Source: Escherichia coli O157 typing phage 9. From it: DNA of 43,991 nt. Location of the stretch: sequence record KP869107. One strand, written 5' to 3'. Each line of letters opens with the position of its first letter. Within the stretch, counting starts at the first letter, position 1. The notes under the pieces were generated by a model. The model saw only the letters and a program-made list of their open reading frames with translations, was not told where the DNA came from and ran no database searches. This document shows positions 1,306 to 43,991 of the stretch, one piece after another. The translations under genes were made by a program, and so were the position numbers.

Positions 1306-1890
1306 ATGAAAAGTATCCAGGACGTCCGCAGGCAAAATCTCAACGACTTGATCGACCGTGAATTCAATGGTGTTCAGACGCGGATGGCAGAAAAACTTGG
1401 AACTCAGGCAAATCTGGTAAACCGCTGGGCTCTTGGCAAGAAGGTTATCGGCGACCAGGTTGCGCGAAAAATTGAAGCTGCCGCCAATAAACCCCGTAAC
1501 TGGCTTGATATCGATCGCTCGCTTTCTCAGGAAGGTTTTCAGCCTGTCGGACCAAGCGACATTGGTCAACTGGCGGCTCACAACCTGGAACGCTGGATGA
1601 GCGAAAGCCGCGACCTTTCAACGCAGGGAAAACTTCACCGCGCATCCGGCGTCGCCCAGGTAACAATCAGCCGCCTGTTAAACAATGAGGTCAGCGTTTC
1701 CATTTCCACCCTGGAGAATGTTGCATCCGCATTTGGGCGTCACGGATATGAATTACTGATTCACCCGCACGACCCCGCGACTATCAACTATGACCGCTCG
1801 CGCTACGCATTGTTACCTGAAACAGAGAAGGCAAAGATCGAAAGTTACATTGAATTTGTCATCAACCAGAACGAAAAAAACAAACAATAA
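1306..1890 (+). CDS. Phage repressor-like protein with two HTH domains and no peptidase S24 (autocleavage) domain
   Basis: 194 aa, ATG at 1306; two HTH-like segments (MAEKLGTQANLVNRW... and ASGVAQVTISRLLN...); no Ala-Gly/Ser-Lys cleavage module recognisable. Confidence 0.55.
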   Translation: MKSIQDVRRQNLNDLIDREFNGVQTRMAEKLGTQANLVNRWALGKKVIGDQVARKIEAAANKPRNWLDIDRSLSQEGFQPVGPSDIGQLAAHNLERWMSESRDLSTQGKLHRASGVAQVTISRLLNNEVSVSISTLENVASAFGRHGYELLIHPHDPATINYDRSRYALLPETEKAKIESYIEFVINQNEKNKQ

Positions 1891-2498: not shown

Positions 2499-4255
2499 AA
2501 CCGGGAATTTATTTCGACATCAGCAACGAAGACTACCACGCCGGTGACGGCGTGAGTAAGTCGCAACTGGACATGGTTGCCAAGAATCCGTCGCTTCTTA
2601 AATGGGTCCAGGCAGCACCAGAAGACGAAGAGAAAAAGTCTGCACTGGATATTGGAACCGCATTGCACTGTCTGCTTCTGGAGCCTGGAGAATTCGACAA
2701 ACGCTTCATTGTTTCACCGAAGTTCGATCGTCGGACGAAACAAGGTAAAGCTGACGAAGAAGCATTTCTTCGTGATGTAGCGGATATGGGGATTACGGTA
2801 CTTGATGCCGAGCAGTGGCGGAAACTGGAGCTGATGCGTGATAGCGCAATGGCTCACCCGGCGGCACGCTGGATGCTGGAAGCACCTGGTTTCTGCGAAG
2901 CATCAATGTACTGGAATGATGAAGATACTGGTGAGTTGTGCCGCATTCGTCCAGACAAATGGCTGAACGAGCACAACGTGATCGTCGACGTGAAAAAGGT
3001 TGCAGATATGGACCGTTTTGCACGCCACATCGAGGAATTCCGCTACCACGTGCAGGACGCAATGTACCGCGAAGGCGCAATGAGGGTTACTGGTCAGCCG
3101 CATGGTTTTTTCTTTCTTGCCGTGAGCGAAAGCATTGATTGTGGTCGGTATCCGGTACGCGTGTTCGAGCTGGATGCGCCGGATGTCGATGCCGGGCACG
3201 CTCTGTTCCGCCGGGATCTGAATACCTATCACGAATGCCGCATAAATGATGAATGGGGCGGTGTGGAAATCATTAAACGCCCTGAGTGGGCACGCAAAAC
3301 AGGATATGTACATATGAGCAACGACATCGCAAACATCAACGCACCAGTAGACACAGCAATCGCTGGAACTGCTGCAACTATTTTCAGCCCAGACGGCTTG
3401 AACCAACTGATGAAATTCGCCGAGGTAATGGCGCAAAGCCGCGTAACGGTACCGGCGCACCTCGCCGGGAAACCAGCTGATTGCATGGCCGTGGCAATGC
3501 AGGCTGCGCAGTGGGGAATGAACCCGTTTGCCGTGGCTCAGAAAACCCATGTTGTGAACGGCACGCTAGGTTATGAAGCCCAATTAGTAAACGCAGTTAT
3601 CTCAACGATGTCGCCAACAAAAGATCGCATCAACTACGAGTGGTTCGGGCCGTGGGAACGCGTGATCGGTAAGTTTGTTGAGAAAACATCCAAAAACGGC
3701 AATCCATATATCGCACCAGGCTGGACTCTAAAAGACGAAGAAGGCTGCGGTGTTCGCGTATGGGCAACCATGAAGGGCGAGGATCAACCTCGAGTGCTTG
3801 AGTTAATGCTGTCTCAAGCACAGGTAAGAAACTCCACACTTTGGGCCAGTGATCCGAAACAACAACTCGCATACCTTGCGACAAAACGCTGGTCTCGCTT
3901 GCACTGTCCTGACGTAATCATGGGCGTCTACACACCAGACGAATTACAGGAAACGGCACCGCGCGTTGAGCGAGACATTACTCCGCAAACGACCACTGCT
4001 GCGGGAATGAACAGTCTGATCAACGCTAAACCAGTGAAAAAGCCTGATGAGCAAACTCGTAAAGCGGATAGCCGTGATCCAGAAGAAATGCTGATGGCCT
4101 TTACCAGCGCAGCGATGAATTACAGCACTGTCTCCGAACTGGATAAGGCTTACAAATACATTGCACAAAAACTTTCAGATGATGACGAACTGCTGGCAAA
4201 AGCCACCGACGTTTACAGCGTTCGTCGGGAAGAATTAAACGAAACATCTATGTAA
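2495..4255 (+). CDS. Recombination protein: N-terminal PD-(D/E)XK exonuclease domain fused to a C-terminal RecT/Bet-family annealase domain
   Basis: 586 aa; N-term DIGTALHCLLLEPGEFDKRFIVSPKFDRRTKQGK (PD-(D/E)XK / exonuclease VIII-like signature); C-term MAVAMQAAQWGMNPFAVAQKTHVVNGTLGYEAQ (RecT/Bet-like); single uninterrupted ORF. Confidence 0.65.
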   Translation: MKPGIYFDISNEDYHAGDGVSKSQLDMVAKNPSLLKWVQAAPEDEEKKSALDIGTALHCLLLEPGEFDKRFIVSPKFDRRTKQGKADEEAFLRDVADMGITVLDAEQWRKLELMRDSAMAHPAARWMLEAPGFCEASMYWNDEDTGELCRIRPDKWLNEHNVIVDVKKVADMDRFARHIEEFRYHVQDAMYREGAMRVTGQPHGFFFLAVSESIDCGRYPVRVFELDAPDVDAGHALFRRDLNTYHECRINDEWGGVEIIKRPEWARKTGYVHMSNDIANINAPVDTAIAGTAATIFSPDGLNQLMKFAEVMAQSRVTVPAHLAGKPADCMAVAMQAAQWGMNPFAVAQKTHVVNGTLGYEAQLVNAVISTMSPTKDRINYEWFGPWERVIGKFVEKTSKNGNPYIAPGWTLKDEEGCGVRVWATMKGEDQPRVLELMLSQAQVRNSTLWASDPKQQLAYLATKRWSRLHCPDVIMGVYTPDELQETAPRVERDITPQTTTAAGMNSLINAKPVKKPDEQTRKADSRDPEEMLMAFTSAAMNYSTVSELDKAYKYIAQKLSDDDELLAKATDVYSVRREELNETSM

Positions 4256-10353: not shown

Positions 10354-12981
10354 TTAAATATTTCCGTTCAGCGTGCGGAATGAGTATTGTTTATCCAGGT
10401 CTACTGGGGTAAATAATCCGTACATTCTGCTCGCTGCGTAGTCTGACTCAGATGAGAAACCGCCAACATAAACATGCGAACCTGCCCCTTCACATGCAAT
10501 ATCACCTGCTAATGGTCCTGAAAATGCGGTGATAGAAGATGTTCCGCTGTTGAATATGCTATTAAATGCGGCGTGAAGATCTGGTTGTCTGTACGCCCGT
10601 CGTATACGCCTTCCGGTATTTATATCAATAATAGACCACCATAATCGGCCTGGAGCGAATCCCATCGCAAAATGATATACGCCTCCTGAAGCTAACGCTT
10701 GCTCCGTTGTCAGATCGCTTGTTAACGTTTGAGTTATACCATCACCGGATAATAATATTGCTATAGTCTGCACACCACTGGAGTTAACTATAAATTGCAT
10801 AACAGCAGAGTTTCCAGAGGGCGAATATCCACTCCCCAGAGTGAAAGCTGTCATAGTTGTTGCACCCGTAAATGACGGGATTAGAACAAGGCCGATTGTA
10901 CACCCATGTCTCGATACTTTATCAGAAAATAATAACTTATCCTTGTTTGATTGCGTTAACTTAAGCATGTTTCCTTGCCCTAGTATCGAAGGAGCGCTTA
11001 CATATGTTGCGGTTGTAACGACTCCGTCAAATGTAGGAATATTGTTTTTTACGCTTCCTGTATATGTATAATAGTTTTTTAGGCCATTTATTATTAAATC
11101 ACCAGAATATGGCTGAATAAGATTATTGTCACCCATGAGTCGTTCGCTGTTTACTTCTGACTCGTAAATACCATTTATCAATACGGTACTATCGGAACCA
11201 ATACACCTCACATTTCCGGCTTGTGAATTTAGATCATATAGCGATGTAGCAGCATAGTTACGGCAAACATAACCATCTACAGTTACTATACTGTTTTCAA
11301 AAACCATATTATGGTATGACAGATTTGATGATGCACTATTTCTGTTAGTATTCAACCCACTGATAGCAACAGTTGAATTTTTAATATACAATCCATCGTA
11401 TGCACAGTCCTGTAACTCAACTCCTGTCATGTTTACATTTTGTGAATTAGAAATACGTAATCCTGAATATGGTGTTTCATTTTCTGAACCAGCCCAAATT
11501 AATTTGGCACCTATAATTCTGCAATTACCAGCACCATCAAGCACTAAGCATTCCTGCCCACACGTATCAATTTGAAGGTTTGTCCATGTAAAATCGGTAG
11601 TTCCGATCTTAGCCCCGGTTTTTTTAATGTTTCTTATGAATAATCCATGCGTTGAGACGGAAAAATTCGTTTCAGGATAATCAAATCCTAACTCGTCAAA
11701 TCCTGTAATGTGAACATTGCTAATGTAAAGATCCCTACGAACGTCAGGGGCGGTATTGAATGGATAGCTTGGTGCCCCACCTGGGTTTCCTGTCTCCATC
11801 GTTACCCCGCTTGTTCCCGCAGTTATTCCATCCCCATACAGGCCACAATCGGACAAATAAATCAGGCTGCAATCCTGAGTAATTGTCAGTAACGCGCCTG
11901 TTGCCCCAGATATTTGCTCTATCCTGGAAACGTGTAGACCAGACCCAGATAGTGAACACGACTTGTTATTTAGCTCAAGATTAGATGCTTTCCAGACATT
12001 TGTGCCAAGCTCAGCCGCCCTGCCACATTCAAGCATCTTTTGCAGTGCTGCTGTATCATCAGCCACGCCAGTGGCCCCAAACATAAACGGATTAACCTTA
12101 TCTGCATTAACCCGTAACCATACAGAACCACCTGCTGTTTTTATTACAACACCATCATCATCGGTATAGCCAGTTCCATCAAGTACAGCTCTGAATACCC
12201 CTCCACCAAGCCCAGTTCCGATCGTATGCTGTCGCAACGTGATCCTTTGACCATTTTTTTCAGGTTCTATTGTTCTTAGTGTCAATATATCAGGGCACTG
12301 ACCAATAAACTTAAATCCATCATTTGCCGCTAACTGGATCATTACATCAGTAGCCGAACCAGATTCAGGCAAAACCATTATCGGATTTCCAGTATCATCC
12401 ATTGCAACAATCTTATTCTTACGTTGCTCAATTCCCGGCAATGCTGGTATCGGCTCAGGGGTTCGTAGCGTTCTGCTCAGGTTTGTTTCTGCGACCCCAT
12501 CAACATATTTTTTTGTAGCCGCATCCTGCGGTCTTACAGGGTCACGAAGGTTACGAATATAGTTGTCCATTGCGTCGTAATAGTTAGCAACAAATGACGG
12601 CTTACGTAGCGCCAGACTAAACCAACTACGAACCTGCTGAATCAACATTGTCAGCTTATCAAACGCATCCTCATGCACCTCAGCAAAGAACTTCCCCTGG
12701 TTACGGAGATCTGTTTCCTGCGTAACCGACAGTTCACGTGATATGGAAATCTGGTAACCATTAGCCAGAGCTGTTGCAAGTATTACATTACCACCTTCAT
12801 ATCCCCCTGCGCCGGTTACTGTGTAGTCAGTATCCAGCGTCAGAACAGTGATGTTATCGTTCAGGTCAACAACCTGTACTACCAGATCAGATTCCTTGAA
12901 AACCCTAAAGGTATACGGAAATGATGTCGTAACACCGTTACCGGTGTATTCGTTGTGGTTAACTTCGGTTGAGACCGTCAT
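10354..12981 (-). CDS. Tailspike/tail fibre protein (T7 gp17-like N-terminal anchor plus beta-helix-like C-terminal domain)
   Basis: 875 aa; N-term EYTGNGVTTSFPYTFRVF...LDTDYTV anchor domain; long Gly/Asn/Ser-rich C-terminal region. Confidence 0.8.
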   Translation of the reverse strand: MTVSTEVNHNEYTGNGVTTSFPYTFRVFKESDLVVQVVDLNDNITVLTLDTDYTVTGAGGYEGGNVILATALANGYQISISRELSVTQETDLRNQGKFFAEVHEDAFDKLTMLIQQVRSWFSLALRKPSFVANYYDAMDNYIRNLRDPVRPQDAATKKYVDGVAETNLSRTLRTPEPIPALPGIEQRKNKIVAMDDTGNPIMVLPESGSATDVMIQLAANDGFKFIGQCPDILTLRTIEPEKNGQRITLRQHTIGTGLGGGVFRAVLDGTGYTDDDGVVIKTAGGSVWLRVNADKVNPFMFGATGVADDTAALQKMLECGRAAELGTNVWKASNLELNNKSCSLSGSGLHVSRIEQISGATGALLTITQDCSLIYLSDCGLYGDGITAGTSGVTMETGNPGGAPSYPFNTAPDVRRDLYISNVHITGFDELGFDYPETNFSVSTHGLFIRNIKKTGAKIGTTDFTWTNLQIDTCGQECLVLDGAGNCRIIGAKLIWAGSENETPYSGLRISNSQNVNMTGVELQDCAYDGLYIKNSTVAISGLNTNRNSASSNLSYHNMVFENSIVTVDGYVCRNYAATSLYDLNSQAGNVRCIGSDSTVLINGIYESEVNSERLMGDNNLIQPYSGDLIINGLKNYYTYTGSVKNNIPTFDGVVTTATYVSAPSILGQGNMLKLTQSNKDKLLFSDKVSRHGCTIGLVLIPSFTGATTMTAFTLGSGYSPSGNSAVMQFIVNSSGVQTIAILLSGDGITQTLTSDLTTEQALASGGVYHFAMGFAPGRLWWSIIDINTGRRIRRAYRQPDLHAAFNSIFNSGTSSITAFSGPLAGDIACEGAGSHVYVGGFSSESDYAASRMYGLFTPVDLDKQYSFRTLNGNI

Positions 12982-13137
12982 GTTAAATCTCCAGATAGTC
13001 GCAGCACCCGTTGCGCCGCATATCCGGTTATTCTATTACCTGAAAAACCACATATGGATAGATAACACATAAATACGAACAGATATTACCTTTCAGGTGA
13101 TTCGCAAAACGTGCTGGATAGCAAACAAATTATTTGC

Positions 13138-13157
13138 TACTGTGTATTTATACAGTT
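13138..13157. promoter_or_regulatory. LexA (SOS) box
   Basis: tACTGTgtatttatACAGtt, 17/20 match to taCTGTatatatatACAGta; about 20 bp upstream of the ATG at 13177. Confidence 0.6.
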
Positions 13158-13176: not shown

Positions 13177-13434
13177 ATGCCGCAGTATCACTATCCACTG
13201 GAAGACGGATTTACCGAAAGGATTCACACGCCGGGAGGCGTCAGGTCACTGGTGGAGGGATCGCACTTGATGAAATTACTCCGGGATCTCGATAAGGATG
13301 GATTTAATGTCGATGGCCCACTTGCCGAACTGACTGCACTGATTAACTACGTCACCAGCTCACAGATGTCCATGCGGGATCTGCAAACACATCTCGACTA
13401 TTGTGCCGAACAATTACGAAAACAAACCAGATAA
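13177..13434 (+). CDS. Hypothetical small protein downstream of the LexA box (candidate SOS-induced factor)
   Basis: 85 aa from ATG 13177 with GGAGAAG RBS (track ORF 13111-13434 starts earlier). Confidence 0.45.
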   Translation: MPQYHYPLEDGFTERIHTPGGVRSLVEGSHLMKLLRDLDKDGFNVDGPLAELTALINYVTSSQMSMRDLQTHLDYCAEQLRKQTR

Positions 13435-13452
13435 GGTTTGCAATTACCAAGT

Positions 13453-13493
13453 GGAGTGCTTATATTTACCGCAAAGGTAAATATAAGCACTCC
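13453..13493. promoter_or_regulatory. 41-bp perfect palindrome (18-bp arms, 5-nt centre) containing TTACCgcaaaGGTAA
   Basis: ggagtgcttatatttacc-gcaaa-ggtaaatataagcactcc read directly. Confidence 0.6.
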
Positions 13494-13569
13494 TATTGTG
13501 CCATAGTAATCGGGCACTGGCAAAATCCAGTGCCGGGATTGGCGTCCCGGGTTACTAAAAGGCGCATTC

Positions 13570-13590
13570 ACCGCGCAAGCGGTTTTTTTA
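13570..13590 (+). terminator. Rho-independent terminator between the small ORF and the antirepressor gene
   Basis: accgc-gcaa-gcggt followed by ttttttt. Confidence 0.5.
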
Positions 13591-13746
13591 TGCGTATAGC
13601 ACGGTCACATTCGTATTATGGTGGGCTGTGTGGGGGCACCGAAAGGTGCGCCGGGTCCTTTTAGCCGGTTACGCCAACCCTGCACAGTTCACCACCAACC
13701 GATTGGCGTAGGTAGTGGTGATTAACCAGACTAAAAGGTAACCACT

Positions 13747-14331
13747 ATGACAGCTACAAAAAGCACGTCCATTTTTTCTTTCGAATCCCAAGCCGATATA
13801 CGGGTAATCGTCATTAATGGTGAGCCATGGTTTATCGCTTCAGATGTTTGTCGGGCTATAGGCATAGCAAACCATCGAGATGCTGTTCGAAAACTTGATG
13901 ATGATGAGAAGGGTGTCGCTTCAACCGACACCCCTGGCGGTGAGCAAGAATCGATCATCATCTCCGAGTCAGGACTCTACACACTGATCCTCCGCTGCCG
14001 CGATGCGGTGACACCAGGCACTATCCCCTACCGCTTTCGTAAATGGGTTACAGGTGAGGTTCTTCCTCAGATCCGCCGCACCGGAAGTTACATTAAAAAC
14101 TCGCTCCCGCAGGAAGAACGCATAAAGATGGTTGCCGACCAGGTAGCCAACGCCACGGCGTCAGCAGTAATGCAGGCGATGAAGATAGAGAACAAAACCT
14201 ACAGTGCCCCACTGAAGCCCGGCTACCGTAGCCTGATTCATTCGCCGTCTGGTGTTCTCGGCCTGACGGAGCACTCACTGCTGATGAACAGGACGACGGG
14301 CATGATGTATCAGGCGCGGCGGCGGAGCTGA
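13747..14331 (+). CDS. Bro-N domain protein / putative antirepressor
   Basis: 194 aa; N-term FESQADIRVIVINGEPWFIASDVCRAIGIANHRDAVRKL typical of Bro-N/antirepressor proteins. Confidence 0.65.
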   Translation: MTATKSTSIFSFESQADIRVIVINGEPWFIASDVCRAIGIANHRDAVRKLDDDEKGVASTDTPGGEQESIIISESGLYTLILRCRDAVTPGTIPYRFRKWVTGEVLPQIRRTGSYIKNSLPQEERIKMVADQVANATASAVMQAMKIENKTYSAPLKPGYRSLIHSPSGVLGLTEHSLLMNRTTGMMYQARRRS

Positions 14332-31047: not shown

Positions 31048-31124
31048 GTGGCATTAGCTCAGTTGGACAGAGCAACCGCCTTCTAAGCGGTTGGTCGCAG
31101 GTTCGAATCCTGCATGCCACGCCA
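31048..31124 (+). tRNA. tRNA-Arg (anticodon TCT)
   Basis: Cloverleaf read by eye: acceptor gtggcat/atgccac, D-loop tagctcagttgg, anticodon loop cttctaa, T-loop ggttcgaatcc, 3' CCA. Confidence 0.8.
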
Positions 31125-38849: not shown

Positions 38850-39374
38850 GCTTCAGGGCTGTTCCAGTGCGGAACGTTGTTATCAGGTAATGTTGATTGC
38901 TTCTGTCTGCTAATCTGCAGCCGCCTTGCCAGCTTCTGCTCCCACTGTGCCTGATGGTATGCCTTACCCTCAGCCATCCAGTAAATTCTGAACTCTGCAA
39001 GTTCCTGTGCCGTTGGCAGACTGTCCAGGTAGATCCCCTGCAATGAGCTTTTCCGAAGAAAGTCATCTGATGGCTGCCATTGTTCATGCATGACAAATTT
39101 GCCTAATTGCCCTGGCCCACCAAGAGGAACAAAGTTATTCATCACGGCGTTGTTTGCGCCGGGGTCATGATGCACAGAATCCCCGTTTTTTGTCCTGCTC
39201 TCCCTCTCTTGGTTAAATGACTGGTTATATGACTGGTTATATGACTGGTTCTGGATCCCGTTTTTGGGATCATTCAACATCCCGTTTTTGGGATCATTCA
39301 ACATCCCGTTTTTGGGTATATTCCCGTTTTCGGTAACATTACCGTTTTCGGGTTCATTGACCCCCTCTCGGTTG
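38831..39374 (-). CDS. Replication initiator O-like, C-terminal part plus iteron-encoded linker; N-terminus lost in the N run
   Basis: Minus-strand frame open from the N run through the iterons (MLNDPKNG repeats, NQSY repeats) to a stop at 38831; overlaps the P-like start. Confidence 0.6.
39093..39374. repeat. Direct repeat, copy 2 (truncated by N run at 39375)
   Basis: Identical to 1-270 apart from an extra 12-bp tandem unit at 39229-39240. Confidence 0.95.
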
Positions 39375-39474
39375 NNNNNNNNNNNNNNNNNNNNNNNNNN
39401 NNNNNNNNNNNNNNNNNNNNNNNNNNNNNNNNNNNNNNNNNNNNNNNNNNNNNNNNNNNNNNNNNNNNNNNNNN
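39375..39474. other. Run of 100 N (unresolved or masked sequence) at the junction between the two phage modules
   Basis: Read directly. Confidence 1.
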
Positions 39475-40077
39475 CACGGCATTCATCGCATCAAGAACCG
39501 GTGATAAATCCTCACCACCATTACCTTCTGCCTGCTGTGCTGATTGCTGAACACGGGACTGGAGATAGTTATTTTTACGGATGAGCGAAGCCACCGCGTC
39601 ACCAATTTCCGGATACATCTCCCTGATACGGGCAATCTGCTCATCAGAAATTTTTTCGTTTTCCGGTAACGGTGTGGGCTTCATACCGGCCTGGTGGATC
39701 TGAGACGTCAGCAGTTCCACCCTGCGTTTTTCTTCAGCTATCTGCCCACGAAGAAGTGCGGCTTCCTGTTCGGCCCGTTGCTTACCGGAACGTTCAGCCT
39801 CAAGGACTTCATAGGGAATGACGTGTTTACCGTCGCGGGTGAGCACCCCCTTCGCTTCCGGCTCCTTCACGTCCTGCGTCTGCTCCACACTGGCATCCGG
39901 CGTCGGTGCCACATTGTTATCGCCCGTCTGAGTCTGTGCTTCCTCATCCGCATGTTTTTCCGTGGTATCTTCCGTCACGACGTCCTGTGCGTGACTGTCA
40001 ATATCCACATCCCCAAGTCCTTCCAGCATTTTTTCCAGTTGTTCCGGGGTTTCTTCACCCGTAAATTCAAAATCCAT
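39475..40077 (-). CDS. Putative scaffolding-like protein of a P22-type head module, 3' end lost in the N run
   Basis: Acidic N-terminus and coiled-coil-like middle; located downstream of the portal as the scaffold gene is in P22-like phages. Confidence 0.35.
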
Positions 40078-40186
40078 AAATAACTCCGCATGGTCTGTTT
40101 ATCGGACAGATCCGAATGGTTGAGTAAATAAGGCTTATCGCTGCCCCCGCGAATAAGCGCACCGCTCCCGGAACGCTTACCTCCGG

Positions 40187-40216
40187 AAACAAAAAACCCC
40201 GTACGATGACGGGGTT
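40187..40216 (-). terminator. Rho-independent terminator after the P22-type portal gene
   Basis: aacccc-gtacgatgac-ggggtt with T6 on the minus strand. Confidence 0.45.
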
Positions 40217-40235
40217 CAGTTGAAGCCAGAGTTTT

Positions 40236-42336
40236 CAGAGCGACATTTCATTCATCCGCTGTTGTAACGTATACAGCATCTGTTGCTGAAGAACGTCCTG
40301 CTCCTGTTCCATATTCTGTACGCCGGTAATGATTTCTGCCGTATGTGCCTGGTTAAGCGCATNNNNNNNNNNNNNNNNNNNNNNNNNNNNNNNNNNNNNN
40401 NNNNNNNNNNNNNNNNNNNNNNNNNNNNNNNNNNNNNNNNNNNNNNNNNNNNNNNNNNNNNNNNNNNNNNNNNNNNNNNNNNNNNNNNNNNNNNNNNNNN
40501 NNNNNNNNNNNNNNNNNNNNNNNNNNNNNNNNNNNCTGCCTGTTGTTGCTGAAGTGCCTGTTGTTGTGCCGCTACTTCCTGTTCTTCCGGCGTCATTTCA
40601 TCCGGTGATTTTGGCGTCCCCAGCGCAGCACGAATACGCTCAACAAACTCCTGTTTCTGCGGCACATCCAGAAGATTAACCCACAGGTCGAGCACAACAG
40701 CCTGCACCTGAGGCGGCAGCCCCTGAATAACCTCTGACATTCTCTGTGCAAGCTGTGCCTTAAACGCCGGTGTCTGCTGAACAGGCGCCAGCGCAATATG
40801 TGTATTTAACCTTGAAATATCATTGGTCAGTTCACCATTATCACCTTCAGCATTGAGGACAATGGTCTGGCGACGCTGGCGATCATCGCGATTAATCACC
40901 ACTGCATGATTACGGCGTTTTTTCAGGTCATCGAGAAGATAAGCCAGCAACAGTCTTCCCACCTGCTGGCAGGCAAACTGGTAGTTATCGTTGATTTCCG
41001 CAAGGGTTGTGGCCCCCTGCTCCACCAGGTTACTGATAGCCACGCCTGACGTCGCACCTGAATCCTGCCCGAGAAATGCGGAATACACTCCNNNNNNNNN
41101 NNNNNNNNNNNNNNNNNNNNNNNNNNNNNNNNNNNNNNNNNNNNNNNNNNNNNNNNNNNNNNNNNNNNNNNNNNNNNNNNNNNNNNNNNNNNNNNNNNNN
41201 NNNNNNNNNNNNNNNNNNNNNNNNNNNNNNCTGCATGACCTGAAACTGCTGGCTGGCAACCTGAAAATCCTGCTCAACCCGAAAAACATCTGCGACACTT
41301 TTCTGATTTTTTCGGACCGGATTCAGTTTAATAATGCCATCCGGACGTTCGATCTGCTCCATCAGGTCGTTGTCTGACAACTGGGTGGCATCCTCGTCCA
41401 TAATCACGCGTTTGGCCTGAAGCAACCAGGTCAGCTTGATACGACGAAAATTCACCTCATCCTGTGCCGGAATGGCGCGGGAAATTAGCCCGTATGGCTC
41501 CCCGGTTTTATCCTTTCGGTATCCCCAGAAAGGAACCAGCGGAAACATCCCCTGCGGAGCACTACAGGGGCGATCCACAATAAAGTGTGGCCCGACAAAC
41601 CAGGCTTCACGAATACGGCTTACCCGCCCGACTTTCACCTGAACCCGCCCGGATGCCACAGCTACCGCCTGCATCAGATTATTTTTATCAAAGGCCACCA
41701 CCCGTCCATTACTGAGTTCAATCACCGGAAGACGCTCGAATGTACGGTAATAAACCACCTGAAGCAGCACACGACGGCGTTCACGCTGAAGCCATTCGTT
41801 CTGCTGTCGATCCCATGACTGATACTCTTCCCATGCACTCATCAACGGACTGGGCTGGCCTTCAGTAACCGTGGTATCGACAAAACCACGCCAGTCATCA
41901 ATGGCATAATCGATAACCTGAGCCATTCCCGGGAATGTAGCTTTTGCCTCATCGGTATCCATCCAGCGGCGACGCATCAGCCATCGGCAGTCACTTAAAT
42001 CAGCCTCCCGGCTCAGCCAGTCCCAGAAAACCTCATTCCGGCTGACAGTAGACACCTTAAATTCAGGCCCGAACGGATCGCTGTTTCGTCTGACCTCCAC
42101 CCAACTGAGGCCCGCCTTGATTTGTTCCGCATAGGCATCAGAGCGGGCTTTATTCATATTGCCAAGGCGGCATGCATCGGCAAATTCAGCATTAATAGCT
42201 TCAGCCAGTTTTTCAGTTTCATCATCTGGCTCGTCTGACATCACCACCAGATCAGTCCGTGTTTTGGCCTCCATTCCCAGAACGCCATCGACGGTAGGCG
42301 CGATGAGGTTATGGATAGTCATCGGCTGACCGCGAT
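40236..42336 (-). CDS. Portal protein, P22-type, interrupted by N runs (5' end inside the N run at 42337-42558)
   Basis: Long portal-sized reading frame with a Gln-rich C-terminal helical region (QEVAAQQQALQQQQA); true C-terminal frame ...QQRMNEMSL ends at 40236. Confidence 0.55.
40363..40535. other. Run of 173 N inside the portal gene
   Basis: Read directly. Confidence 1.
41092..41230. other. Run of 139 N inside the portal gene
   Basis: Read directly. Confidence 1.
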
Positions 42337-42558
42337 NNNNNNNNNNNNNNNNNNNNNNNNNNNNNNNNNNNNNNNNNNNNNNNNNNNNNNNNNNNNNNNN
42401 NNNNNNNNNNNNNNNNNNNNNNNNNNNNNNNNNNNNNNNNNNNNNNNNNNNNNNNNNNNNNNNNNNNNNNNNNNNNNNNNNNNNNNNNNNNNNNNNNNNN
42501 NNNNNNNNNNNNNNNNNNNNNNNNNNNNNNNNNNNNNNNNNNNNNNNNNNNNNNNNNN
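42337..42558. other. Run of 222 N spanning the terminase/portal gene junction
   Basis: Read directly. Confidence 1.
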
Positions 42559-43991
42559 GAGCCATCCAGTGTGTGGTTCTGCGTTTATCCGTTTTCTGTT
42601 TTACCCTCACCGGCATTCTGGCGCGCATCTCCTGGGCAATCATGTAGCTCATGAGCTGATCATCAAAGCAGCCTTCCTGTGCATTCATGGAGCCTTTCGC
42701 GTCATAAACGTAGGTGTTCATTTCCGATAATGTGCCTGACCAGCGGATCCCTGATATTCCATTATTCAGAAGCGTTTTCATTCCTTCGGTCAGAACAGGT
42801 TTGCTCTGACGGGTTGTCAGCCAGCCAAGGCGGGGCGTATCGTCGTCATATGCCTGGTCAAGATGCTGTTCGTTGTAGATATAACGTGTCGGATAGAGTT
42901 CCCGGAGTTTCAGGATAACTGCATGTCCGTGATTATTACGCTCCGGCCCCACAAACGCGTTGTTATACATACGACAGACCTGCGAAATGAGATGAGCAAA
43001 AAGTTCAGCATCGAGATGCCCGAACCAGTGAGCCACCTGCTCGCCATTACTGCGTTTGACAACATCCAGCGATGAGCGGTCTCCGTGCTCCAGCCCTTCG
43101 GCAGTATCTGCCCCANNNNNNNNNNNNNNNNNNNNNNNNNNNNNNNNNNNNNNNNNNNNNNNNNNNNNNNNNNNNNNNNNNNNNNNNNNNNNNNNNNNNN
43201 NNNNNNNNNNNNNNNNNNNNNNNNNNNNNNNNNNNNNNNNNNNNNNNNNNNNNNNNNNNNNNNNNNNNNNNNNNNNNNNNNNNNNNNNNNNNNNNNNNNN
43301 NNNNNNNNNNNNNNNNNNNNNNNNNNNNNNNNNNNNNNNNNNNNNNNNNNNNNNNNNTGTTCATCAGTAAGCGTGATGTTCATTGCCTTCTCAACCGCAG
43401 AAAAATACGTCATTTTTTCCCGTGACAGCTTCAGCCCGCTTTCCGGCACTCTGGCGCTGTATTTAGGATCCTGCCACCAGGCGTAAAAATGGAATTTATA
43501 ATCCTGTGCCGTCAGCAATAAGCCTGATGCAGTGATCTCCTGTGCTCGGTTACTCATCTCGTAAAAATCACCACCCACGCCTTCAGCAGTGGACTCATCA
43601 AAAATAATGCATTCATCAGAGACGGCATTAAGCGTACCGGTTCGCAGTTCTTTCGCCTTAGCCGGATATTTCGCGCAAATTTTGCCGTGCTCTGAGATAT
43701 GCAGGCGCTGCACCGTACCTGAACGGAATGAGGTTGCCACCTGGATACTCGAGCCGTGACCAAACAGGATATAGCCACCGCTGGCACCGCTACGACGTTC
43801 AACGATGGTGAATGAGGCTCTCAGCCAGTCAGGGAGATGATCAAACGGTACAGCAATTTTTGTGCGGAAAATTTCACTGGCAGCCTGTTTATCCTGAGCG
43901 ACGATCCCGCATTTGAGATGCGGAATGAATAATGCCTGGTCGAGAAGATAAATATCAATGGCTGTGGAAAATCCCAGCTGGCGCGCTTTCA
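42559..43991 (-). CDS. Terminase large subunit, P22-type; N-terminus beyond the window end, interrupted by an N run
   Basis: Minus-strand frame from the window end: ...ILFGHGSSIQVATSFRSGTVQRLHISEHGKICAKYPAKAKELRTGTLNAVSDECIIFDESTAEG...; after the gap ...VAHWFGHLDAELF...DDQLMSYMIAQEMRARMP (nuclease-domain-like). Confidence 0.55.
43116..43357. other. Run of 242 N inside the terminase gene
   Basis: Read directly. Confidence 1.

Follow-up and report, generated by a model that had tools for sequence, protein, structure and literature searches.

The region at positions 13435 to 13746 of the window, by which we mean the whole stretch of 43,991 nucleotides that was analysed, most probably (at a probability of about 0.85) carries a secondary immunity cassette of the P1/P7 type (immI-like). 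Judged by homology and by analogy with the known systems, the cassette would combine a repressor operator, a decoy RNA of the IsrK type and a C4-type antisense RNA directed against the ribosome site of ant, the Bro-N antirepressor-type gene downstream. The region belongs to RNA families that are known and curated, so the result adds to the annotation and is no discovery. Over the 1.4 kb around the structured region the sequence shows 100% identity with Escherichia phage phiV10 and O157 typing phage 10, and going by its sequence the window represents phiV10, which belongs to the epsilon15-like Uetakeviruses. The features are collected in Table 1. Below, small ant denotes the SOS-controlled gene upstream of the region and Rep the repressor of the phage.

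Table 1. Positions of the features in the window and the sequences or observations that define them.
Feature	Position	Strand	Sequence or description
Rep gene	1306-1890		194-aa repressor; match to the SPC32H repressor, PDB 5D50_A, E = 4e-42
Tailspike gene	10354-12981	-	
Further Rep operator	13086-13100		5' of small ant
LexA box	13140-13155		CTGTGTATTTATACAG; 5' of small ant
Small ant	13177-13434	+	small ORF
Upstream promoter-like site	13438-13466	+	TTGCAA-17-TATATT; consensus scan of the window and ZX5
Perfect palindrome	13453-13493	none	18-bp arms, 5-nt loop; inverted-repeat search
Palindrome, left arm	13453-13470		GGAGTGCTTATATTTACC
Rep operator core	13466-13480	none	TTACC-N5-GGTAA = TTACCGCAAAGGTAA; palindrome centre
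Palindrome, loop	13471-13475		GCAAA
Palindrome, right arm	13476-13493		GGTAAATATAAGCACTCC
isrK-type promoter (predicted)	13499-13507	+	extended -10 TGcCATAGT; predicted start G13514
IsrK-type small RNA	13514-13589	+	two 5' hairpins, single-stranded linker, rho-independent terminator
IsrK hairpin 1	13514-13520 / 13527-13533	+	GCACTGG/CCAGTGC
IsrK hairpin 2	13534-13549	+	CGGGA/TCCCG
b1	13539-13545	+	UUGGCGU; IsrK hairpin 2 loop, complementary to b'
a1	13555-13562	+	CUAAAAGG; IsrK linker, complementary to a', identical to a2
Terminator-spanning helix (predicted)	13562-13567 with 13590-13595	+	GCGCAU/AUGCGU
Terminator stem	13570-13583	+	ACCGC-GCAA-GCGGT; T run to 13589
C4-type antisense RNA	13614-13699	+	86 nt; long closing stem around two hairpins
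a'	13657-13664	+	CCUUUUAG; C4 second hairpin loop
b'	13670-13677	+	UACGCCAA; C4 linker after second hairpin
b2	13703-13710	+	UUGGCGUA; ant 5'UTR, target of b'
ant 5'UTR hairpin (predicted fold)	13712-13748	+	13712-13719 with 13741-13748
a2	13731-13738	+	CUAAAAGG; ant 5'UTR, target of a'
Bro-N gene (ant)	13747-14331	+	
Injection-type genes	3' of Bro-N gene	-	

The IsrK-type and C4-type RNAs and their pairing elements

We searched the region against all Rfam families, a check that the first-pass annotation of this DNA had proposed, and obtained two matches above the curated cut-offs, both on the + strand. The isrK model (RF01394) matched 13514-13589 with 75.9 bits (cut-off 50), and the C4 model (RF01695) matched 13614-13699 over its full length (model positions 1-87) with 77.7 bits (cut-off 45). 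The c4-a1b1 model (RF03163) stayed below its cut-off (44.1 vs 46.7 bits, 13501-13553) and was outscored by the overlapping isrK model; the region does contain a1 and b1. Matches to MIR6217, Atu_C6 and Ocean-VII lay far below the cut-offs and were discarded.

Two short hairpins and a rho-independent terminator had already been noticed in the first-pass annotation. Folding confirmed the hairpins at 13514-13533 and 13534-13549, and the terminator was confirmed with its stem at 13570-13583 and a T run up to 13589. Given the Rfam matches, these elements together make up one IsrK-type small RNA. Folding and covariance analysis had been suggested as well, and both support the structure: in an alignment of 14 phages, compensatory changes were found at 5 of the 11 base pairs of IsrK, hairpin 1 included, and at 12 of the 27 base pairs of C4. 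The C4 region, which starts 24 nt after the end of IsrK, folds at -45.6 kcal/mol (z = -4.7), and its single-sequence fold reproduces the C4 structure. The idea that a small structured RNA is encoded here was thus borne out by the isrK and C4 matches. The analogy to the sar RNA of P22 that accompanied it did not hold, as the RNAs share the strand of ant and carry short complementary loops. The C4 structure and the repeated complementary elements of 7-9 nt were absent from the first-pass annotation, though C4 lies inside the coordinates that it covered.

An additional helix would span the terminator and could form only in read-through transcripts. It was predicted in 12 of the 14 phages (for SfV and P7 via single-sequence folds), a count to be read with a weak non-cognate control, the helix sequence being common to many phages, and with the helix lying out of register in the MAFFT alignment. 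The variants observed were GCACAUA/UAUGUGU, GGCGACAA/UUGUCGUU and, in P7, GCGGACA/UGUCCGU.

The pairing elements of C4 were labelled a' and b' following the APSE-7 record. Each has a complementary copy in IsrK (a1, b1) and another in the 5'UTR of ant (a2, b2). The element a2 holds the Shine-Dalgarno sequence of ant, AAGG, which precedes the AUG at 13747 by 9 nt. In the fold predicted for the 5'UTR, a2 and the Shine-Dalgarno sequence are placed in the loop of a hairpin and the stem includes the A and the U of the start codon; analogous hairpins were predicted in most relatives.

We then compared these elements across the 14 phages. At least nine different a' sequences occur among them, for example CCUUUGUAG, CCACUUAG, CCUUUUUC, CCUGUUUAG, CCGAUAAC and CCGUAUGC, with CACAAUC in P7. 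In each phage, P7 and a Pseudomonas phage included, both a1 and a2 are altered to match its own a'. For b' we observed the variants ACGCCAA, AGACCAA, AUGCGAA and CUGCUAA, and b1 and b2 are likewise matched. Counted as contiguous complementarity on the loop and linker elements only, the mean for a' with a2 was 9.3 nt in cognate combinations vs 6.1 nt in non-cognate ones. Matrices of duplex energies between C4 and its target RNAs were dropped, as pairing among the G+C-rich stems of the hairpins confounded them. The three-way co-variation of the elements gives strong evidence for functional pairings that specify the type of immunity, comparable to the difference between P1 and P7.

An alternative reading of the same stretch is a leader peptide, the 35-codon ORF at 13618-13725, whose translation would be coupled to that of ant. 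It draws on Gifsy-1, where translation of the corresponding orf45 has been shown and contributes to the activation of the antirepressor gene anrP, and where the authors attribute activation to this upstream ORF (PMC4825925). The AUG of the phiV10 ORF also lies within the conserved 5' end of C4. However, the ORF that starts at this AUG ranges from 3 to more than 200 codons in the relatives (3, 15, 28, 31, 33, 35, 64 and others) and ends anywhere from 118 nt before the start codon of ant to an in-frame fusion with ant, whereas the C4 region is conserved at the level of RNA pairing. The ORF that starts within C4 of Gifsy-1 overlaps the start of anrP (AUGA), whereas the one in phiV10 is unconserved and stops 21 nt before the AUG of ant with no overlap. 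A coupled leader peptide is unlikely on this evidence. We did not accept the ORFs at 13401-13664 (87 aa) and 13618-13725 (35 aa) as genes, since ORF length is unconserved while the RNA pairs are conserved.

The operator and the palindrome around it

Upstream of the two RNAs lies the motif TTACC-N5-GGTAA. The window holds 8 exact sites of this motif, vs 0.04 expected, and a further 6 sites with one mismatch, including 1188-1202. According to the list of ORFs, all of them fall between ORFs: some surround the repressor gene, others precede the terminase, replication, O-acetylase and small ant genes, and one lies at 13466-13480. The GenBank record of epsilon15 annotates ATTACC-N5-GGTAAT seven times as 'repressor; lysogeny', and the motif is identical. 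The SPC32H repressor is described as a tetramer on palindromic sites that is taken apart by small Ant (PMC9638917). Rep, small Ant, the LexA box and the operator motif are all homologous between phiV10 and the Rep-Ant lytic switch of SPC32H and epsilon15, and the presence of an operator in the palindrome is explained by this type of switch. The first-pass annotation had taken the centre of the palindrome for an operator. With the motif enriched in the window and matching the sites annotated in epsilon15, this interpretation is well supported, and Rep would be expected to bind at 13466-13480.

The operator core sits between two promoter-like sites. For the upstream one, the last base of the -10 element is the first T of the operator and the predicted start (~13473) falls in the operator centre. 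In TL-2011b and EC.W1-9, whose upstream DNA is unrelated, the pattern TTGnnn-17/18-TATnaT is kept with equal spacing to the operator, and we regard the site as a putative promoter. The downstream, isrK-type promoter has its -35 element TTTACA directly 3' of the operator in the relatives; in phiV10 this element is degraded, having been lost through the change that perfected the palindrome. The scan of ZX5 gave TTTACA-17-CATAGT with the TG, and in all relatives there is a sigma-70-like pair whose end lies 7 nt upstream of IsrK position 1. Since the operator centre is located ~44 nt 5' of the start in the relatives, Rep could activate, rather than repress, the downstream promoter.

The palindrome with its 18-bp arms is present at 13453-13493 as first reported, and no other local inverted repeat in the window comes close to it in length; the chance expectation for such repeats is ~1e-5. 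The match of the arms is perfect for 18 nt and still 91% when they are extended to 23 nt, and as RNA the palindrome has a predicted fold of -31.5 kcal/mol (z = -12). In the relatives the left arm is the same, and the right arm reads GGTAAAT-TTACATC-GCACTCC, which leaves a quasi-palindrome only. The alignment against these relatives shows 7 bases of the right arm swapped in phiV10 for 4 (ATAA), which exactly complement the left arm. Exact replacement by the complement of the other arm is what a templated mutation on a quasi-palindrome would be expected to leave behind. In a comparison with 5,426 E. coli genomes, the perfect 18-bp arms were found only in phiV10 and in the TT12A/B prophages, and the phiV10 version of the palindrome was not found in any complete E. 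coli genome. The TT12B prophage of O157:H7 has the same perfect arms around a reversed loop, TTTGC; as this is opposite to the loop of phiV10, the loop was flipped in one of the lineages. Because the perfect arms are limited to the phiV10/TT12 lineage and are imperfect in the others, their perfection points to a recent templated change and not to a 'super-site'. The perfect palindrome looks like a by-product of such a mutation on a quasi-palindrome, and its perfection is unnecessary for the proposed logic of the cassette.

There are two other possible roles for the palindrome. It could terminate the transcripts of the SOS-controlled small ant or stabilise their 3' ends, as it begins 19 nt 3' of the stop codon of this gene and a terminator directly follows the gene in epsilon15 and SPC32H. 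However, no U tract follows the stem (UAUUGUG), the palindrome was not called by the terminator scan of the + strand and the stem is much weaker in the relatives. Moreover, the core is a repressor site with 8 exact copies in the window, those elsewhere being in non-3' contexts. We consider this role improbable.

The second role is that of an extended 'super-operator' that is functional as such, or of a structured RNA element in the leader of ant. The first-pass annotation had proposed a super-site of this kind together with an attenuator gating read-through into the antirepressor gene. The palindrome is indeed perfect, statistically extreme and centred on the operator core, and a transcript from small ant would fold it into the hairpin of -31.5 kcal/mol. 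Yet in Tyrion, TL-2011b, EC.W1-9, ZX5, phiv142-3 and PH444 conservation is limited to the 15-bp core and the arms are imperfect or absent, and the restriction of the perfect arms to phiV10 and TT12A/B among the 5,426 genomes also speaks against this role. The other 13 operator sites are without extended symmetry, transcripts from either of the predicted promoters would miss the left arm, and the change from 7 nt to 4 nt in the right arm bears the templated signature given above. A super-operator or leader element is thus very unlikely. The attenuator half of the proposal fared better: the terminator exists, and in homologous systems it is partly read through into the antirepressor gene (PMC4825925).

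Genomic context and the two antirepressor-type genes

The ORF upstream of the region, which had been called SOS-regulated, indeed lies behind a consensus LexA box and is a homologue of the small Ant of SPC32H. Its product matches PDB 5D50_E with E = 2.9e-46, and its tblastn matches are annotated 'ant: anti-repressor' in SPC32H/N. The gene downstream matches Pfam Bro-N (1.6e-21) and the PHROG 'anti-repressor Ant'. The Bro-N proteins of the relatives have 218-234 aa, and the C-terminal domain of the intact ones is 44% identical to small Ant (E = 3e-16); this resemblance supports a role of the Bro-N protein as a Rep antirepressor. Compared with TT12B and ZX5, ant of phiV10 has a 16-nt deletion between 14287 and 14288, which causes a frameshift and removes most of the C-terminal domain that resembles small Ant. 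For this reason the phiV10 gene is probably inactive as an antirepressor, and the cassette may be partly defunct in this phage.

IsrK, C4 and the Bro-N gene are all absent from the loci of epsilon15, SPC32H and a Klebsiella relative that we compared, and there a terminator directly follows small ant. The cassette can thus be identified by comparison as an accessory insertion, placed between the small SOS-controlled ant and the injection-protein genes of an epsilon15-like phage. It is widely distributed. About 1,000 of the 5,426 complete E. coli genomes match the cassette query, and Stx phages also carry the cassette. Pairs of IsrK and C4 occur in the Uetakevirus-like phages ZX5, TL-2011b, phiv142-3, Tyrion and EC.W1-9, and also in Stx phages (VT2-Sakai, P27-like), SfV, Salmonella phages and APSE; upstream of C4, P7 and a Pseudomonas phage match the c4-a1b1 model in place of isrK. 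Some epsilon15-like phages would have, in addition to the characterised LexA-Ant-Rep switch, a second antirepressor tier that is gated by RNA, and the antirepressor of this tier shares a domain with small Ant.

For this part of the genome the phiV10 record has only p24 as a hypothetical gene, a feature 'similar to SF0880', a 'putative rho-independent terminator' and, with a Bro-N domain, a 'putative anti-immunity protein'. The present assignments correct the annotation of phiV10 and its relatives, whose records show only a 'terminator', spurious small ORFs or nothing. The feature 'similar to SF0880' occupies the same stretch as the RNA region.

Comparison with known systems and proposed mechanism

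In P1, C1 represses the c4-icd-ant operon and full repression of ant needs C4 (PMC8198154). P7 shows the same order of elements as phiV10 on one strand: C1 operator, a1b1 hairpins, c4, b2 and a2/SD over the ribosome site, and the ORF. The likeness to immI of P1/P7 further extends to the C4 fold, to a probable antirepressor as the output and to a primary repressor with many dispersed operators, as for C1 of P1. There are also clear differences. An icd-like conserved ORF between C4 and ant was not found in phiV10, unlike in P1; in P7 the targets of C4 lie over the ribosome site of icd, which is followed by ant, whereas in phiV10 C4 targets the ribosome site of ant directly. The operator of phiV10 belongs to an SPC32H-type Rep that is unrelated to the repressor of P1/P7, the upstream element passes the isrK cut-off as a full IsrK-type RNA and that of P7 does not, the antirepressor is a Bro-N fusion, and the a'/b' specificity sequences differ.

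The isrK-orf45(STnc1160)-anrP-isrJ locus of Gifsy-1 is the sole relative for which direct experiments on read-through and on activation by IsrK in trans exist. There, the isrK promoter drives anrP and the IsrK terminator is partly read through. The resulting long transcript is translationally silent, an ~80-nt RNA complementary to IsrK, STnc1160, is processed from it, and IsrK supplied in trans raises the translation of anrP ~140-fold; binding of Hfq and activation by IsrK in trans are documented for Gifsy-1 only (PMC4825925). Lysogens of Gifsy-1 express IsrK and STnc1160 at high levels (PMC7067206). The authors of the first of these studies liken STnc1160 to the CI RNA of P4, without mention of the C4 of P1 (PMC4825925). 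The Gifsy-like locus SW-37 aligns throughout with the phiV10 cassette, and with a C4 score of 61.9 bits for the Gifsy-like locus we identify STnc1160 as a C4 homologue. Gifsy-1 thus shares with phiV10 IsrK and its terminator, a C4 homologue and an antirepressor gene; it differs in that phiV10 has no isrJ downstream and has a predicted Rep operator at the promoter. The three-way co-variation described above ties the IsrK system of Gifsy-1 to the classical C4 mechanism of P1.

The APSE phages of Hamiltonella have the trio of isrK, C4 and Bro-N annotated in GenBank, with a' and b' marked. The APSE paper reports isrK and C4 beside a Bro-N gene and notes the match upstream of Bro-N (PMC7313666). 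These phages differ from phiV10 in belonging to the Sendosyvirus lineage, in their specificity sequences and in having no Rep-type operator.

P22, also a short-tailed temperate phage, resembles phiV10 in that an RNA, sar, negatively controls an antirepressor gene beside the tailspike gene in immI. The sar RNA acts as cis-antisense: it is made from the opposite strand and is fully complementary to its target, and Arc and Mnt act at the promoter. In our searches of phiV10 we found no RNA family match on the minus strand and no Arc/Mnt-like ORFs. The only points in favour of a sar-like cis-antisense RNA over the ribosome site of ant are the analogy in function, an antirepressor controlled by an RNA, and a weak promoter-like site on the minus strand at 13523-13495. 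Such an RNA is extremely unlikely, since all Rfam matches are on the + strand, the promoter-like site is directed away from ant, no minus-strand pair of promoter and terminator was found around 13700-13750 and genes of the Arc/Mnt type were not found. By analogy, the arrangement is one that works like immI of P1/P7 and isrK-STnc1160-anrP of Gifsy-1, and unlike sar of P22.

For the P1/P7-type cassette we propose the following course of events, the steps of which are taken over from P1/P7 and Gifsy-1 by homology; for phiV10, the promoters and start sites, the processing of C4 and the binding of Rep to 13466-13480 are predictions by analogy. Transcription would start at G13514 and possibly also near 13473, and most transcripts would end at 13589 to give the short IsrK. 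Read-through transcripts would carry C4, which may be cut out as a stable RNA of ~80 nt. The C4 of P1 is matured by RNase P from the leader of its own target transcript. C4 would then pair with b2 and a2 and block the entry of ribosomes on ant, and the antirepressor would thereby stay off both in lysogens and in superinfecting genomes that share the specificity. The short IsrK, which carries a1 and b1, would compete for the loops of C4 or open the structure in cis, and with IsrK in excess the translation of ant would be turned on. The terminator would set the ratio of IsrK to C4, and Rep on the operator would set the level at which the cassette is transcribed. This reading of IsrK as a decoy against an antisense RNA is simple and can be tested by compensatory mutations.

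The terminator scan found no terminator on the + strand between small ant and 13570-13589. SOS-induced transcripts of small ant should therefore cross the palindrome and end at the IsrK terminator. It is conceivable, although we hold it to be rather doubtful, that the SOS mRNA thus carries the a1/b1 decoy at its 3' end, so that DNA damage would yield both the small antirepressor and a titration of C4 that releases the Bro-N antirepressor. If this were true, it would be a feed-forward link from the protein switch to the RNA switch, with a Rep operator between both tiers. It would apply fully to phages with an intact Bro-N ant (ZX5 and the TT12 prophages), the second tier being broken in phiV10.

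We also noted that the specificity elements of phiV10 partly overlap with those of the Stx prophages of its O157 host; C4 of an Stx prophage shares b' with phiV10 and has two differing positions in a'. This overlap makes cross-talk between co-resident prophages plausible.

Rep operators and the two antirepressors

The small antirepressor, which is controlled by LexA and encoded at 13177-13434, is a homologue of the SPC32H Ant and matches PDB 5D50_E. We found the intact Bro-N antirepressors (ZX5, 1251-1946 of L003) to end in a C-terminal domain that shares 44% identity with it across 72 aa. On this likeness we infer that the Rep-binding module is carried twice by these phages, once under SOS control and once under RNA control. 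In phiV10 itself the Bro-N antirepressor gene (13747-14331) is broken: compared to the TT12B prophage and ZX5, a 16-nt deletion at 14287/14288 causes a frameshift and the C-terminal ~45 aa are lost. Another frame still encodes these residues, up to 14424, and the phiV10 annotation lists the remnant as a separate 29-aa ORF, p22.

The operator of the repressor, TTACC-N5-GGTAA, is dispersed across the window with eight exact sites and six sites with one mismatch, located in front of early, replication, terminase, O-acetylase and ant genes. A single repressor, Rep, with many operators is an arrangement similar to that of C1 in P1.

Positions of Rep operator sites and of protein features from public records
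Feature	Sequence	Position	Remark
Rep operator sites	window	851, 1188, 1236, 1948, 2010, 7093, 9271	start positions; exact or one mismatch
Rep operator sites (rest of 14)	window	13086, 13466, 30711, 33858, 33876, 37935, 37997	start positions; exact or one mismatch
'ash family protein'	L003 (ZX5)	1132-1245	over C4/IsrK RNA region
'similar to SF0880'	L001 (phiV10 record)	3575-3642	over C4/IsrK RNA region

Palindrome loop and IsrK structure

The perfect palindrome of phiV10 and its copy in TT12B are identical apart from the 5-nt loop, which is GCAAA in phiV10 (13471-13475) and TTTGC in TT12B (772-776 of L021). Judged from the two sequences, the difference is a natural flip of the loop between the 18-bp inverted repeats.

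The IsrK terminator is predicted to be enclosed by a helix (13562-13567 / 13590-13595); predictions for 12 of the 14 phages, P7 among them, contain this helix, with compensatory variants. This predicted helix is possible only in the read-through RNA and touches the 3' end of a1, the copy of the ant leader element within the IsrK linker. For hairpin 1 (13514-13533 and homologues) the stem co-varies and the loop is nearly invariant: it reads GCAAAAUC or, in the case of P7 and of the Pseudomonas phage, CAAAUUC. The loop showed no complementarity to C4 and may therefore be a binding site for a protein, for example Hfq, or for some other partner.

Protein features annotated over the RNA genes

In three relatives an annotated CDS runs right across the IsrK and C4 genes (825-1661 in L012, which is orf37 of SfV; 831-1973 in L013; 825-1973 in L016) under the names 'transcriptional regulator', 'putative antirepressor' or 'Rha protein'. 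The true start is likely the ATG at 1428, directly after the a2/SD element, which includes the Shine-Dalgarno sequence of ant. The small protein features over the same region (see table) are probably spurious.

Make-up of the window

Positions 1-146 recur at 39093-39238, and this repeat marks the ends of the phiV10 genome. Searching with 39000-43991 gave a match at 100% identity, in five pieces covering 75% of the query, between the part from 39476 on (39476-43991) and the portal and large-terminase DNA of the Stx phages 933W/VT2-Sakai. By its sequence the window is more than one genome and the contig looks chimeric or concatenated. The phage genome also holds a tRNA-Arg gene (anticodon TCT) at 31048-31124.
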